A DNA stretch of 64,000 nt from Actinomycetales bacterium. GTDB lineage: Bacteria; Actinomycetota; Actinomycetes; S36-B12. This document shows, piece by piece, positions 2,436-52,784 of the stretch. The translations under genes were made by a program, and so were the position numbers. The notes beneath the pieces are model-generated. The model did no database searches and was not told the DNA's origin. It was given only the letters and a program-made list of their open reading frames with translations. The DNA is taken from positions 60,264 through 124,263 of the forward strand of contig WGLX01000011.1 of the NCBI GenBank assembly GCA_016125355.1, given 5' to 3'. Numbering within the stretch: position 1 is the stretch's first letter; each line of letters starts with the position of its first letter.

Positions 2436-2904
2436 CCTCCCGCTGGTCGGCGTGGGCACGGACGTGCACGCCTTCGAAGAGGGGCGGCCACTCTGGCTCG
2501 CGGGGCTGCTGTGGCCCGGCGAGACCGGCCTGGCGGGCCACTCGGATGCGGACGTGGCCGCCCACGCCATCTGCGACGCACTGCTGTCTGCCGCAGGCCT
2601 GGGTGATCTCGGTGCGGTCTTCGGGACGAGTGACCCGCAGTGGGCCCAGGCGTCGGGGGTGTCCCTCCTGAGCCACACGGCGCACCTGGTGCGCGAGGCA
2701 GGCTTCGTCATCGGCAACGCCAGCGTGCAGATCGTCGGCAACCGTCCCAAGGTCGGACCTCGCCGGGAGGAGGCGCAGGACGTGCTCAGCGCAGCCATCG
2801 GGGCGCCGGTCCGGGTTTCCGGGACGACCACCGACGGCCTGGCGATGACTGGCCGTGGAGAGGGCGTTGCCGCCATTGCGGTAGCGTCGGTGGGACGGGC
2901 ATGA
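2425..2904 (+). CDS. ispF: 2-C-methyl-D-erythritol 2,4-cyclodiphosphate synthase
   Basis: [21 protein letters not shown]...[17 protein letters not shown] motif. 159 aa. Confidence 0.93.
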
Positions 2905-22306: not shown

Positions 22307-22378
22307 AGCCCCCGGTCAGGTTTGAACTGACGACCTACCGCTTACAAGGCGGTTGCTCTACCACTGAGCTACAGGGGC
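22307..22378 (-). tRNA. tRNA-Thr (anticodon UGU)
   Basis: Manual cloverleaf: acceptor GCCCCTG/CGGGGGC, D arm GCTC-AGTGGTA-GAGC, anticodon arm ACCGC-CTTGTAA-GCGGT, T arm GTCAG-TTCAAAC-CTGAC, discriminator T. No encoded CCA. Confidence 0.9.
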
Positions 22379-43131: not shown

Positions 43132-44202
<1,071 letters not shown>

Positions 44203-44556
44203 GCTGACTCCTTCTACCGGCAGGAACGTGCCGGACGATCCGAAGTGGAAGGTGCGCCCGGGCGGGCGCTGGCACCACCGTAGCGAAGACCGGGCGTGGA
44301 GGGGAGCGGCTCGGCCCGTTCCGATGTCCGGTCGGCACGGTGGGACGGGTGCCTCCCGTGCAACTCGTTTACATGAATCCCATCAGCGCCGGTATATCAA
44401 ATCGTGATGTATTTGTTGCTTTTCGGGCGCCTGCAGGGGTTGCGACAGGCAACGGGGGCGCGAAAGGATGACAGCGTTTACGTCGCCCCGGAACATGGGC
44501 AGACGCAGCATCGACGGGGACCTTCCCCGTCGAATCCGATCAGGCAAGGAGAATCC

Positions 44557-50407: not shown

Positions 50408-51091
50408 ATGCGAAACACCACGATCAGCATCGACGGTCAGGACGTCCCCGGCGTCATCGCGATCCCCGAGTCCGGGACCGGGCCGGGCGTCATCGTCATC
50501 CAGGAGTGGTGGGGGCTGGTCCCGCACATCGTCGACCTGGTGCAGCGGTTCGCCGCCGCCGGCTACGTCGCCCTCGCCGTCGACCACTACCGGGGAGTCG
50601 AGACGACCGAGCCGGATGAGGCGCAGAAGCTCATGATGGGCCTCAACATCGATCAGGTGGCGGCTGATCTCGCGGCCGCGGCGACCGATCTGCTGAGCAG
50701 GCCGGAGGTCGCCGGCTCCAAGATCGGCGTGGTCGGCTTCTGCATGGGTGGCGGCCTCGCGCTGCTCGCTCCCACGGTCTCAGACGACATCGACTGCGCC
50801 GTGGCGTTCTACCCGGCGATGCCCTGGCCGCACTACGCGCCCGACTGGTCCCGCTACACGGGCAAGGCGGCAGTGGTGAACAAGGCCGAGTCGGACGAGG
50901 CGAGCAACGGACCGGCCATCGCCGAGTACACGGCTGCCATCGCGGAGGCGGGCGGAGACGTCGCGGTGTTCGACTATCCCGGCAGCGTGCACGCCTTCTT
51001 CAACGATGCCCGACCGGAGGTGTTCCAGCCGGAGAACTCCGAGGCGGCCTGGCAGGTGACCCTCGAGTTCCTGAATGCCCGACTCGGGTAG
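50408..51091 (+). CDS. dienelactone hydrolase-family alpha/beta hydrolase
   Basis: GVIVIQEWWGL and the nucleophile motif GFCMGG are typical of the DLH family. An alternative start lies at 50390. Confidence 0.85.
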   Translation: MRNTTISIDGQDVPGVIAIPESGTGPGVIVIQEWWGLVPHIVDLVQRFAAAGYVALAVDHYRGVETTEPDEAQKLMMGLNIDQVAADLAAAATDLLSRPEVAGSKIGVVGFCMGGGLALLAPTVSDDIDCAVAFYPAMPWPHYAPDWSRYTGKAAVVNKAESDEASNGPAIAEYTAAIAEAGGDVAVFDYPGSVHAFFNDARPEVFQPENSEAAWQVTLEFLNARLG

Positions 51092-51782
51092 CCCGCGCTC
51101 CCTCGCCTCCCTGGACCGGGCCATCGCCACCTGCCGACGCTGCCCGCGCCTGGTGGCGTGGCGCGAGGAGGTGGCGGTCACCAAGCGGGCCGCGTTCGCC
51201 GACGAGGAGTACTGGGGCCGACCCGTCCCGGGGTTCGGCGCGTCCCGTCCGGTGATCTGGATCGTGGGTCTGGCCCCAGCGGCGCATGGCGCGAACCGCA
51301 CGGGACGCATGTTCACGGGGGACCGCAGCGGCGACTGGCTGTTCGCCTCGCTGCACCGCGTCGGACTGGCCGGCCAGCCCACGTCCACCTCGCGGTCCGA
51401 TGGCCAGCGGCTGAACGGAGTCCGGATCACCGCCGCCGTCCACTGCGCCCCACCGGCCAACAAGCCGACCAAGGAGGAGGAACGCACCTGCTCGACCTGG
51501 CTGGACGACGAGCTCCGCATCATCGAACCGTCTGTGCGGGTCACGGTGGCCCTCGGCGGCATTGCCTGGCAGGCCGCTCGACGGGTCATGGAGCGGGCGG
51601 GGTGGCAGGTGCCGCGCGTGCCTTTCGGGCACGGCGCGGAGGCCGAGGTCCATACCGGCCGGACGACCATCACACTGCTCGGTTCGTACCACCCCAGCCA
51701 GCAGAACACCTTCACCGGGCGCCTCACCGAGCCGATGCTCGACGCGGTGATGACGCGGGCCCGCGACCTCGGCTCGGCCTAG
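51075..51782 (+). CDS. uracil-DNA glycosylase, family 5 (UdgB-like, Fe-S)
   Basis: CRRCPRL cysteine cluster, GLAPAAHGANRTGRMFTGD motif, and HPSQQN near the C-terminus. Confidence 0.85.
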   Translation: MPDSGSPRSLASLDRAIATCRRCPRLVAWREEVAVTKRAAFADEEYWGRPVPGFGASRPVIWIVGLAPAAHGANRTGRMFTGDRSGDWLFASLHRVGLAGQPTSTSRSDGQRLNGVRITAAVHCAPPANKPTKEEERTCSTWLDDELRIIEPSVRVTVALGGIAWQAARRVMERAGWQVPRVPFGHGAEAEVHTGRTTITLLGSYHPSQQNTFTGRLTEPMLDAVMTRARDLGSA

Positions 51783-51794
51783 GCTGGGGAACCG

Positions 51795-51868
51795 GCCCCT
51801 GTAGTCCAATTGGCAGAGACACCCGGCTTAAACCCGGCACAGTGTGGGTTCAACTCCCACCGGGGGCA
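51795..51868 (+). tRNA. atypical class-I-shaped tRNA with anticodon UAA (formally Leu/UUA); identity uncertain
   Basis: Manual fold: acceptor GCCCCTG/CGGGGGC, D stem GTC/GAC with an AATTGGCA-type loop, anticodon stem CCGG/CCGG plus a C27:C43 mismatch, loop CTTAAAC, 5-nt variable loop ACAGT, T arm GTGGG-TTCAACT-CCCAC, discriminator A. Confidence 0.65.
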
Positions 51869-51907
51869 CGGAGTGGCCCCGCATGGGACCGGGGGCACGG
51901 AGTGGCC
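51859..51907 (+). repeat. 20-nt direct repeat duplicating the tRNA 3' end (period 29 nt)
   Basis: accgggggcacggagtggcc occurs at 51859..51878 (last 10 nt of the tRNA plus 10 nt of flank) and again at 51888..51907. Confidence 0.95.
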
Positions 51908-51950
51908 ATGCGTTTATGCGGAAACCAGCCCGGTCGGTTACCGTGTTTCT

Positions 51951-52784
51951 ATGCAATCAAACAACCCTGTGCTGTCGCGCTATGAGAAGTCGGACAAGTC
52001 CGGTTTCGCCTACCAGGAGGGCGTGGACGCCTACTCCCAGGCGGCGGCCGGAGGGGCCGGCGCCGCGGATGTCAACACGGCCTTCCAGACGGTCACGGCG
52101 GCCGGCGGAGCCCGCCTGACGATCAACGACGTCATCGTCAAGACCCTCGGCGTCTTCGCCGTGGTCGTCGTCTTCGCGGTGATCGGCTGGAACACCGTCG
52201 AGTCGATGCCGTGGATGCTGTGGGTCGGCCTGATCGGCGGCATGATCCTGGGCTTCGTCAACGCGCTCAAGAAGCAGCCGTCGCCCCCGCTGATCCTGCT
52301 CTACGCGGTGTTCCAGGGCGTCCTGCTGGGCGCCATCAGCAACTTCTACAACACCCTGGCGATCAGCAACCAGTACGAGGGCATCGTCCTGCAGGCCGTG
52401 ATCGCCACGATGACGACGTTCGGCGTGATGCTGGCGCTGTACCTCACGGGCGTCATCAAGGTGACGAAGAAGTTCCAGAGCATCCTCATGGTCGCCGCGG
52501 TGTCCTACCTGCTCATCGGGCTGGCCTCGCTGGTGGCGGCGCTGTTCGGCGTCGGCGGCGGCTGGGGCTTCTACGGTGTCGGCGGCCTAGGCATCCTCAT
52601 CGCCGTGGCCGGCGTGCTGATCGCCTCCTTCTTCCTGCTGCTCGACTTCGAGGCGATCAACCACGGCATCCGCATGGGTGCCCCGGAGCGCGAGTCGTGG
52701 CGTATGGCCTTCGGGCTGCTCGTCACGCTCATCTGGATCTACCTGGAGTTCCTGCGCCTGCTGGCCCTGCTGAATCGCAACTAG
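51951..52784 (+). CDS. Bax inhibitor-1/YccA-family membrane protein
   Basis: ATG 51951 (MQSNNPVLSRYEK...). Seven hydrophobic segments. The longer ORF start at 51810 runs through the tRNA and was rejected. Confidence 0.85.
   Translation: MQSNNPVLSRYEKSDKSGFAYQEGVDAYSQAAAGGAGAADVNTAFQTVTAAGGARLTINDVIVKTLGVFAVVVVFAVIGWNTVESMPWMLWVGLIGGMILGFVNALKKQPSPPLILLYAVFQGVLLGAISNFYNTLAISNQYEGIVLQAVIATMTTFGVMLALYLTGVIKVTKKFQSILMVAAVSYLLIGLASLVAALFGVGGGWGFYGVGGLGILIAVAGVLIASFFLLLDFEAINHGIRMGAPERESWRMAFGLLVTLIWIYLEFLRLLALLNRN

Follow-up and report, generated by a model that had tools for sequence, protein, structure and literature searches.

Can a bacterial tRNA whose variable loop is short and whose anticodon is UAA be a genuine leucine tRNA, or does such a molecule have to be something else? 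This is the question raised by a 74-nt gene in a stretch of 64,000 nt from an Actinomycetales bacterium (contig WGLX01000011.1; the whole stretch is called the window in what follows). The initial annotation of the gene, for which bacterial tRNA-Leu are class II molecules with a long variable arm, left three options: an unusual short-arm leucine isoacceptor, a tRNA of another identity that would recode or mistranslate TTA, or a decaying pseudogene. The results of this work point to the first of these, i.e., the gene is very probably a functional type I (short-variable-loop) tRNA-Leu(UAA), homologous to the short UAA and CAA tRNAs of mycobacteria and, in Streptomyces coelicolor, to the type I tRNA-Leu(CAA). 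The window gene has a conserved, covarying cloverleaf with a leucine body, every leucine identity element that can be read at the sequence level, and a UAA anticodon. The gene and its arms are as follows:

51795..51868, forward strand: the gene assigned to type I (short variable loop) tRNA-Leu(UAA), from ARAGORN, Rfam RF00005, the minimum free energy fold, conservation and covariation
51804..51820, forward strand: D arm, with a 3-bp stem GUC/GAC and an 11-nt loop CAAUUGGCAGA, an architecture typical of tRNA-Leu
51822..51838, forward strand: anticodon arm CCCGG-CUUAAAC-CCGGC, with the anticodon UAA at 51829-51831 and a C27·C43 mismatch at the top
51839..51843, forward strand: variable loop ACAGU, 5 nt, with the invariant U48, partner of A15
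51844..51860, forward strand: T arm GUGGG-UUCAACU-CCCAC, with changes on both sides in four of the five T-stem pairs across homologs

ARAGORN calls a tRNA-Leu(taa) at 51795-51869 (+), and Rfam RF00005 matches 51795-51868 over its full length (model positions 1-71 of 71) with 53.6 bits and an E value of 1e-8, the gathering score being 29. The minimum free energy fold is a cloverleaf as well, and a direct reading in the order of the tRNA gives GCCCCUG-UA-GUC-CAAUUGGCAGA-GAC-A-CCCGG-CUUAAAC-CCGGC-ACAGU-GUGGG-UUCAACU-CCCAC-CGGGGGC-A. The gene measures 74 nt up to the discriminator A73 (51868), where CGG follows and no CCA is encoded. Its acceptor stem, GCCCCUG/CGGGGGC, has 7 bp with U6·G67 as the single G·U pair. 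All this agrees with the initial annotation, which had described the 74-nt cloverleaf with its UAA anticodon and 5-nt variable loop, the one G:U pair in the acceptor stem, the 3-bp D stem, the C27:C43 mismatch, the canonical T arm and A73, and had also seen correctly that the other tRNA of the window, a tRNA-Thr(UGU) at 22307-22378 on the reverse strand (Rfam 72.3 bits), has the very same acceptor stem.

The conservation of the gene can be followed through its two neighbours:

51075..51782, forward strand: uracil-DNA glycosylase (UDG) family gene, PF03167, the upstream neighbour, ending 12 nt before the tRNA
51951..52784, forward strand: gene for a Bax inhibitor-1/YccA (BI-1) family membrane protein, PF12811 + PF01027, the downstream neighbour, starting 82 nt after the tRNA

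A BI-1 scan of GTDB species genomes gave 80 loci with about 3 kb of flank on each side of BI-1 and BI-1 identities of 53-78%, nearly all of them from freshwater metagenome-assembled genomes labelled Nanopelagicales, Actinomycetes or Actinomycetota. A short tRNA(UAA) is found in 70 of the 80 orthologous loci (75-77 nt as called by ARAGORN, 74 nt to A73), so that the comparison of intergenic loci proposed by the initial annotation finds the same tRNA again and not a gene for a Lys, Asn or Thr tRNA. In 52 loci the tRNA lies upstream of BI-1 at a distance of at most 200 nt (median 78 nt) and shares its strand. Of the 22 loci with a UDG homolog, 17 have its end no more than 150 nt before the tRNA; one locus (L077) keeps the order dienelactone hydrolase (DLH)-UDG-tRNA-BI-1 with the short tRNA inverted. 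Nine loci are free of tRNA, seven of which have 331 nt of sequence or less upstream of BI-1; only two (L005 and L052) have the full 3-kb flank yet no tRNA. A more distant locus, L068, with a BI-1 53% identical, carries a canonical 86-nt long-arm tRNA-Leu(taa) at 2731-2816 (-), adjoining BI-1 on the opposite strand. Because the same short tRNA is conserved across these loci, a lone decaying pseudogene is ruled out.

The short tRNA exists in 29 distinct sequences, which hardly differ between U8 and U48 and vary in the acceptor and T stems. CCA is encoded in 18 of 71 genes, and in all 71 a C follows A73, even where no CCA is encoded, which agrees with the C74 of type I tRNA-Leu. CCA addition would provide C74 in any case.

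For the analysis of covariation, 28 distinct clade sequences were aligned with seven reference short tRNA-Leu (the TAA and CAA tRNAs of Mycobacterium tuberculosis and of M. smegmatis, those of Nocardia and Arthrobacter for TAA, and that of Tsukamurella for CAA), giving 35 sequences in a gapless alignment of 74 columns. In the cloverleaf, 95.7% of the cells are in standard pairs and 14 of the 20 pairs change on both sides, with compensatory changes in the D-stem pairs 10:25 and 11:24. None of 500 column shuffles reached the observed pairing and covariation, and sliding the 3′ partners by 1-3 columns lowers the pairing to 30-61%. The only systematic non-pair is 27:43 (alignment columns 28:44; window positions 51822/51838), which is C·C, or C·U, in 27 of the 35 sequences, all from the freshwater clade, and which forms a regular pair in the homologs from mycobacteria, Nocardia and Arthrobacter and in one further locus (L006). 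The fixed C27·C43 is the single clade-specific oddity of the window tRNA.

Which amino acid the molecule should carry is indicated by its body. The identity elements of E. coli-type tRNA-Leu are A73, A14, A15-U48, G18G19-U55C56 and U54-A58 (PMC6614811). Every one of them is present in the window tRNA, together with U8-A14, and none of the 35 sequences departs from U8, A14, A15, G18, G19, U48, U54, U55, C56, A58 or A73 (A73 is alignment column 74, G18 and G19 are columns 18 and 19, U48 is column 49, U54-C56 are columns 55-57 and A58 is column 59), with A14, A15, G18 and G19 all in the D arm. The long variable arm of class II (more than 10 nt, with position 47n) is not there: the loop has 5 nt, as opposed to 15 nt in L068, and its length of exactly 5 nt, the 3-bp D stem and the 11-nt D loop are those of type I tRNA-Leu.

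Among all 45 tRNAs of M. tuberculosis (supplement of PMC11541572), the closest to the window tRNA are Leu-TAA (59/75 identical, score 41) and Leu-CAA (58/75, score 39), both of them 74-nt short-arm molecules; Asn follows (53/76, score 26), with Thr, Lys and Glu lower. Within this full set, then, the closest relatives are the short leucine tRNAs. The 3-bp D stem and A37/C38 had been taken by the initial annotation as deviations from leucine tRNAs. This part of it does not stand: A37 is a purine, and both features are normal for tRNA-Leu, because the long-arm tRNA-Leu(UAA) of L068 shares both. A tRNA-Glu-like or tRNA-Lys-like body, which the same two features had led us to suspect, was rejected, since L068 shares the D arm and the loop and the M. 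tuberculosis Glu and Lys tRNAs fall far below Leu. Identity to L068 over the shared positions is about the same as that to the M. tuberculosis type I genes, and it is A9 and the GCCCC acceptor stem that place the window tRNA with the type I family.

That a short-arm leucine isoacceptor would be notable was a premise of the initial annotation that does not hold, as such tRNAs have already been documented, and leucylated, in Streptomyces. Fan et al. (2019, Nucleic Acids Research 47:6369; PMC6614811) described in S. coelicolor a type I tRNA-Leu(CAA) with the variable loop A44C45A46G47C48, which the single leucyl-tRNA synthetase (LeuRS) of this species leucylates with a kcat/Km of 6.25 s-1 uM-1, vs 14.2 s-1 uM-1 for the long-arm bldA tRNA. 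According to the same paper, U8-A14, the elbow, C74 and the 5-nt length of the loop matter for this charging, and LeuRS needs its leucine-specific domain (LSD); human mitochondrial LeuRS charges both types of S. coelicolor tRNA-Leu. The term 'type I tRNALeu' led, in a full-text literature search, to Fan et al. only. The variable loops of the S. coelicolor tRNA and of the window tRNA are both 5 nt long and differ in one letter (ACAGC vs ACAGU). Unlike the window tRNA, the former has the natural anticodon CAA and reads UUG only, the reader of UUA being the long-arm bldA tRNA. The homology between the two would run through the mycobacterial and Tsukamurella tRNA-Leu(CAA). As cited in PMC6614811, Pettersson & Kirsebom (2011) found tRNA-Leu(CAA) with its anticodon changed from CAA to UAA to be the only isoacceptor able to replace bldA; by analogy, that variant would be an engineered counterpart of the present natural tRNA.

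Natural versions with UAA are found in standard annotated genomes, where they have been little discussed. The tRNAscan-SE tables of the MenT3 paper list a single tRNA-Leu(TAA) each in M. tuberculosis H37Rv (score 63.1) and M. smegmatis (63.8), 74 nt long and short-armed; tRNA-Leu(CAA) is also short in both species, and those with CAG, GAG and TAG are long-armed. The M. tuberculosis Leu-TAA is seen in vivo as full-length, CCA-ended reads at low counts, 1-25 per library. These two tRNAs (trna12 and trna34; 'Leu-4' in PMC11541572) have in common with the window tRNA their length of 74 nt, the UAA anticodon, the 5-nt variable loop, A73, the 3-bp D stem with a AAUUGGCAGA loop and the GCCCC start of the acceptor stem, and align to it without gaps. 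They differ from it in a fully paired anticodon stem (G27·U43 or G27-C43, as opposed to C27·C43), in the loop CUUAAAA instead of CUUAAAC, in the D-stem pair 11:24 (C-G there, U-A in the window) and in their genomic context. A BLAST search against plasmid and chromid records added Nocardia farcinica and Arthrobacter sp. as carriers of a short tRNA-Leu(UAA) and Tsukamurella as a carrier of a short tRNA-Leu(CAA); there is no synteny with the Nocardia and Arthrobacter loci, whose neighbours differ. The class as such is therefore already known, and biochemically validated in S. coelicolor.

Comparison with other UAA-type leucine tRNAs helps to delimit this class. The class II tRNA-Leu(UAA) of L068 shares with the window tRNA the anticodon loop CUUAAAC, A73, a near-identical T arm, a position adjoining BI-1 and a matching D arm, with a 3-bp stem and the loop AAUCGGCAGA, and differs in the 15-nt variable arm GACCGGCAACGGUGU, in G9 instead of A9 and in its acceptor stem. 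Other examples of class II are bldA and E. coli leuZ, and E. coli LeuRS charges class II tRNA-Leu. The animal mitochondrial tRNA-Leu(UUR) share the class I shape, a UAA-type anticodon and A73; these are organellar and structurally relaxed molecules, the likeness being one of features, and S. coelicolor LeuRS does not charge them (PMC6614811).

Similar short genes are common in phages. BLAST against phages returned 84 records, mostly annotated as tRNA-Leu, including a tRNA-Leu(taa) of Streptomyces phage CeilingFan. The short phage genes are 74-78 nt long, have the same D-arm signature and a 5-nt variable loop, and are 76-80% identical to the window tRNA; the tRNA-Leu(tag) of Pseudomonas phage vB_PseuGesM_254 reaches 80% and has the same variable loop ACAGU. 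What sets them apart is that they are phage-borne, some of them in Gram-negative hosts, and that their anticodons include UAG and CAA. Three such loci (L085, L086 and L087) correspond to PV165877.1, NC_041971.1 and OR575930.1, with anticodons UAA, UAG or CAA, and Gram-negatives among the phages and hosts with short tRNA-Leu-like genes include Pseudomonas, Erwinia, Salmonella and cyanophages. LeuRS from E. coli reportedly does not accept the type I tRNA-Leu(CAA) of S. coelicolor as a substrate, which makes the charging of these phage tRNAs puzzling.

If the type I interpretation is correct, the window gene would be transcribed. It may share a transcript with the UDG and BI-1 genes, as neither a sigma-70-like promoter nor an intrinsic terminator was found around the tRNA, a result that is uninformative for actinomycetes. 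The transcript would then be processed and receive its CCA post-transcriptionally, and would be charged with leucine by the single actinobacterial LeuRS, for which the long arm would not be needed. The charged tRNA would decode UUA as leucine, and probably UUG too if U34 is modified. We are inclined to doubt a bolder version, in which the short tRNA would be the only decoder of UUA and UUG in the Nanopelagicales-like clade, having replaced the long-arm UAA tRNA (as in L068) and any tRNA-Leu(CAA), and in which the mismatch would tune the wobble reading or, in members of high G+C, turn the tRNA into a limiting gate of the bldA kind.

Several points weigh against a functional type I tRNA-Leu(UAA). 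The Rfam score of the window tRNA, 53.6, is lower than the 72.3 of the tRNA-Thr, the mycobacterial short tRNA-Leu being also low in tRNAscan-SE (53-64), and the fixed C27·C43 mismatch weakens the anticodon stem. No LeuRS gene was found in the 64-kb window (there is no long open reading frame with KMSKS). The failure of E. coli LeuRS with the type I tRNA-Leu(CAA) of S. coelicolor (PMC6614811) means that type I charging depends on the lineage of LeuRS. Finally, the window gives no proof that UUA has to be decoded, because its open reading frames with high G+C at third codon positions contain no real TTA in about 18,600 codons, vs 65 TTG, 861 CTG and 809 CTC. The lone apparent TTA is the tRNA's own anticodon, read in a spurious extension of the BI-1 open reading frame (51783-52784).

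This absence of TTA bears out the rarity of the codon that the initial annotation had presumed for a high-GC actinomycete, and it bears on what the tRNA is for. The demand on the window tRNA for UUA reading is low, because UUA is almost unused in this organism of 69% G+C. Relatives of lower G+C (52-57%), which keep the same tRNA, use TTA in BI-1. Across the BI-1 orthologs, 16 TTA codons lie at columns that are 62% leucine, similar to the columns of TTG (64%) and CTG (49%), so TTA seems to be read as an ordinary leucine codon.

A UAA anticodon where TTA is very rare is also what characterizes bldA, and the rarity in the window is comparable to that in S. coelicolor, whose whole genome holds 145 TTA codons (PMC6614811). 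The tRNA could thus be a regulatory one, gating a few TTA-containing genes, an idea that overlaps with the favoured explanation rather than excluding it and to which the scarcity of the M. tuberculosis short tRNA-Leu(TAA) in vivo would lend itself. We nevertheless regard it as improbable: the tRNA is kept in relatives down to about 52% G+C, with TTA in an ordinary housekeeping gene, no TTA-containing gene, regulators included, was found in the 64-kb window, the lineages are non-sporulating freshwater plankton, and the bldA tRNA of Streptomyces is long-armed.

Still less credit, to the point of being highly improbable, can be given to a tRNA that originally belonged to another amino acid (e.g., Lys, Asn, Thr or Glu), came to have the anticodon UAA and now causes TTA to be mistranslated or recoded. 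Its class I shape and the acceptor stem in common with tRNA-Thr(UGU) could suggest such an origin, and deliberately mistranslating tRNAs do exist in some actinomycetes, namely in the tRNAProX/ProRSx system. A mistranslating tRNA joins the body of one amino acid to the anticodon of another, whereas here the body, its identity nucleotides and its nearest neighbours all point to leucine, as does the UAA anticodon. The resemblance to tRNA-Thr ends with the acceptor stem, as overall identity is only 52/75 and the discriminator is A73 in the window tRNA and U73 in tRNA-Thr. The two M. tuberculosis tRNA-Leu are nearest by a wide margin, the leucine identity nucleotides are invariant, the orthologous loci hold the same tRNA(UAA) and TTA codons align with leucine columns. 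The genes that flank the tRNA, moreover, code for GH1, GH32, DLH, UDG, BI-1 (a protein identical to NCBI GC156_07750) and a metallo-beta-lactamase-fold protein, and no extra aminoacyl-tRNA synthetase gene is among them.

Least credible of all, with next to no chance of being right, is a pseudogene in decay or a bare attachment site left behind by an integrative element. It might be read from a covariance-model score below that of typical tRNAs, from the C27·C43 mismatch, from the duplication of the 3′ end 29 nt downstream and from integration at this tRNA, which is evident in relatives. Against it, 29 distinct sequences, beside BI-1 proteins diverged to 53-58% identity, keep every stem pair by compensatory change and their loops nearly invariant, the mismatch is conserved and not random, and use as an attachment (att) site is normal for functional tRNA genes.

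For the annotation of the window, the consequence is that the gene should be entered as tRNA-Leu(UAA), neither a pseudogene nor a recoding tRNA, and the importance of this beyond annotation is small. The textbook view that all bacterial tRNA-Leu are class II is corrected at the same time, as the UUR-reading tRNA-Leu of actinomycetes are often short-armed, a pattern extended here to an uncultured freshwater clade of about 52-72% G+C. The 29 natural variants and the conserved 27:43 mismatch could inform how actinobacterial LeuRS recognizes type I tRNA-Leu, and the short tRNA-Leu(UAA) is flagged as a hotspot of integration.

The duplication at the 3′ end of the tRNA consists of two copies:

51859..51878, forward strand: 20-nt direct repeat ACCGGGGGCACGGAGTGGCC, copy 1, spanning the final 10 nt of the tRNA and the 10 nt that follow
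51888..51907, forward strand: 20-nt direct repeat ACCGGGGGCACGGAGTGGCC, copy 2, identical, 29 nt downstream of copy 1

This repeat is not in the related loci and is private to the source genome among the loci compared. It may be an integration/excision scar at the 3′ end of the tRNA or a local tandem (slippage) duplication. The duplication in Logan contig L001 does not count as independent confirmation, L001 matching the window from end to end at 100% identity. A clearer case is locus L073, where the 3′ half of the short tRNA-Leu(UAA) is repeated exactly over 34 nt (1304-1337 and 2886-2919) on both sides of a 1.58-kb insert between tRNA and BI-1, with two small open reading frames and no integrase; such an att-like arrangement is the mark of an element that has integrated into the tRNA. 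In L005, one of the two fully flanked loci that lack the tRNA, a 14-nt remnant CCCCCACCGGGGGC, corresponding to the 3′ strands of the T stem and the acceptor stem, lies at about 2897-2912, some 90 nt upstream of BI-1, and in Tsukamurella (L084, 3090-4280) a gene for a site-specific integrase lies directly downstream of the short tRNA-Leu(CAA). Because of this remnant and this integrase gene, short tRNA-Leu genes are suggested to be integration hotspots. As a general mark of displaced tRNAs, a repeat of the 3′ end beside BI-1 is clear only in L073, with none in the other 18 loci where the gap exceeds 200 nt.

Just 3′ of the tRNA there is also a motif, GAGTGGCC, in the window (51869-51907), in L019, where it is locally duplicated too, and in L020. 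Lying between tRNA and BI-1, it may serve as a conserved element of processing or regulation. A further ARAGORN call among the loci, a 92-nt 'tRNA-Val(gac)' at 1249-1340 of L002, lies inside a coding region homologous to the dienelactone hydrolase gene and is almost certainly a false positive. Elsewhere in the window, at 44202-44260 on the reverse strand, an msiK RNA motif (Rfam RF01747) is found with 56.2 bits (gathering score 33); this cis-regulatory element is known from the actinobacterial genes for the ATPases of sugar ATP-binding cassette (ABC) transporters.

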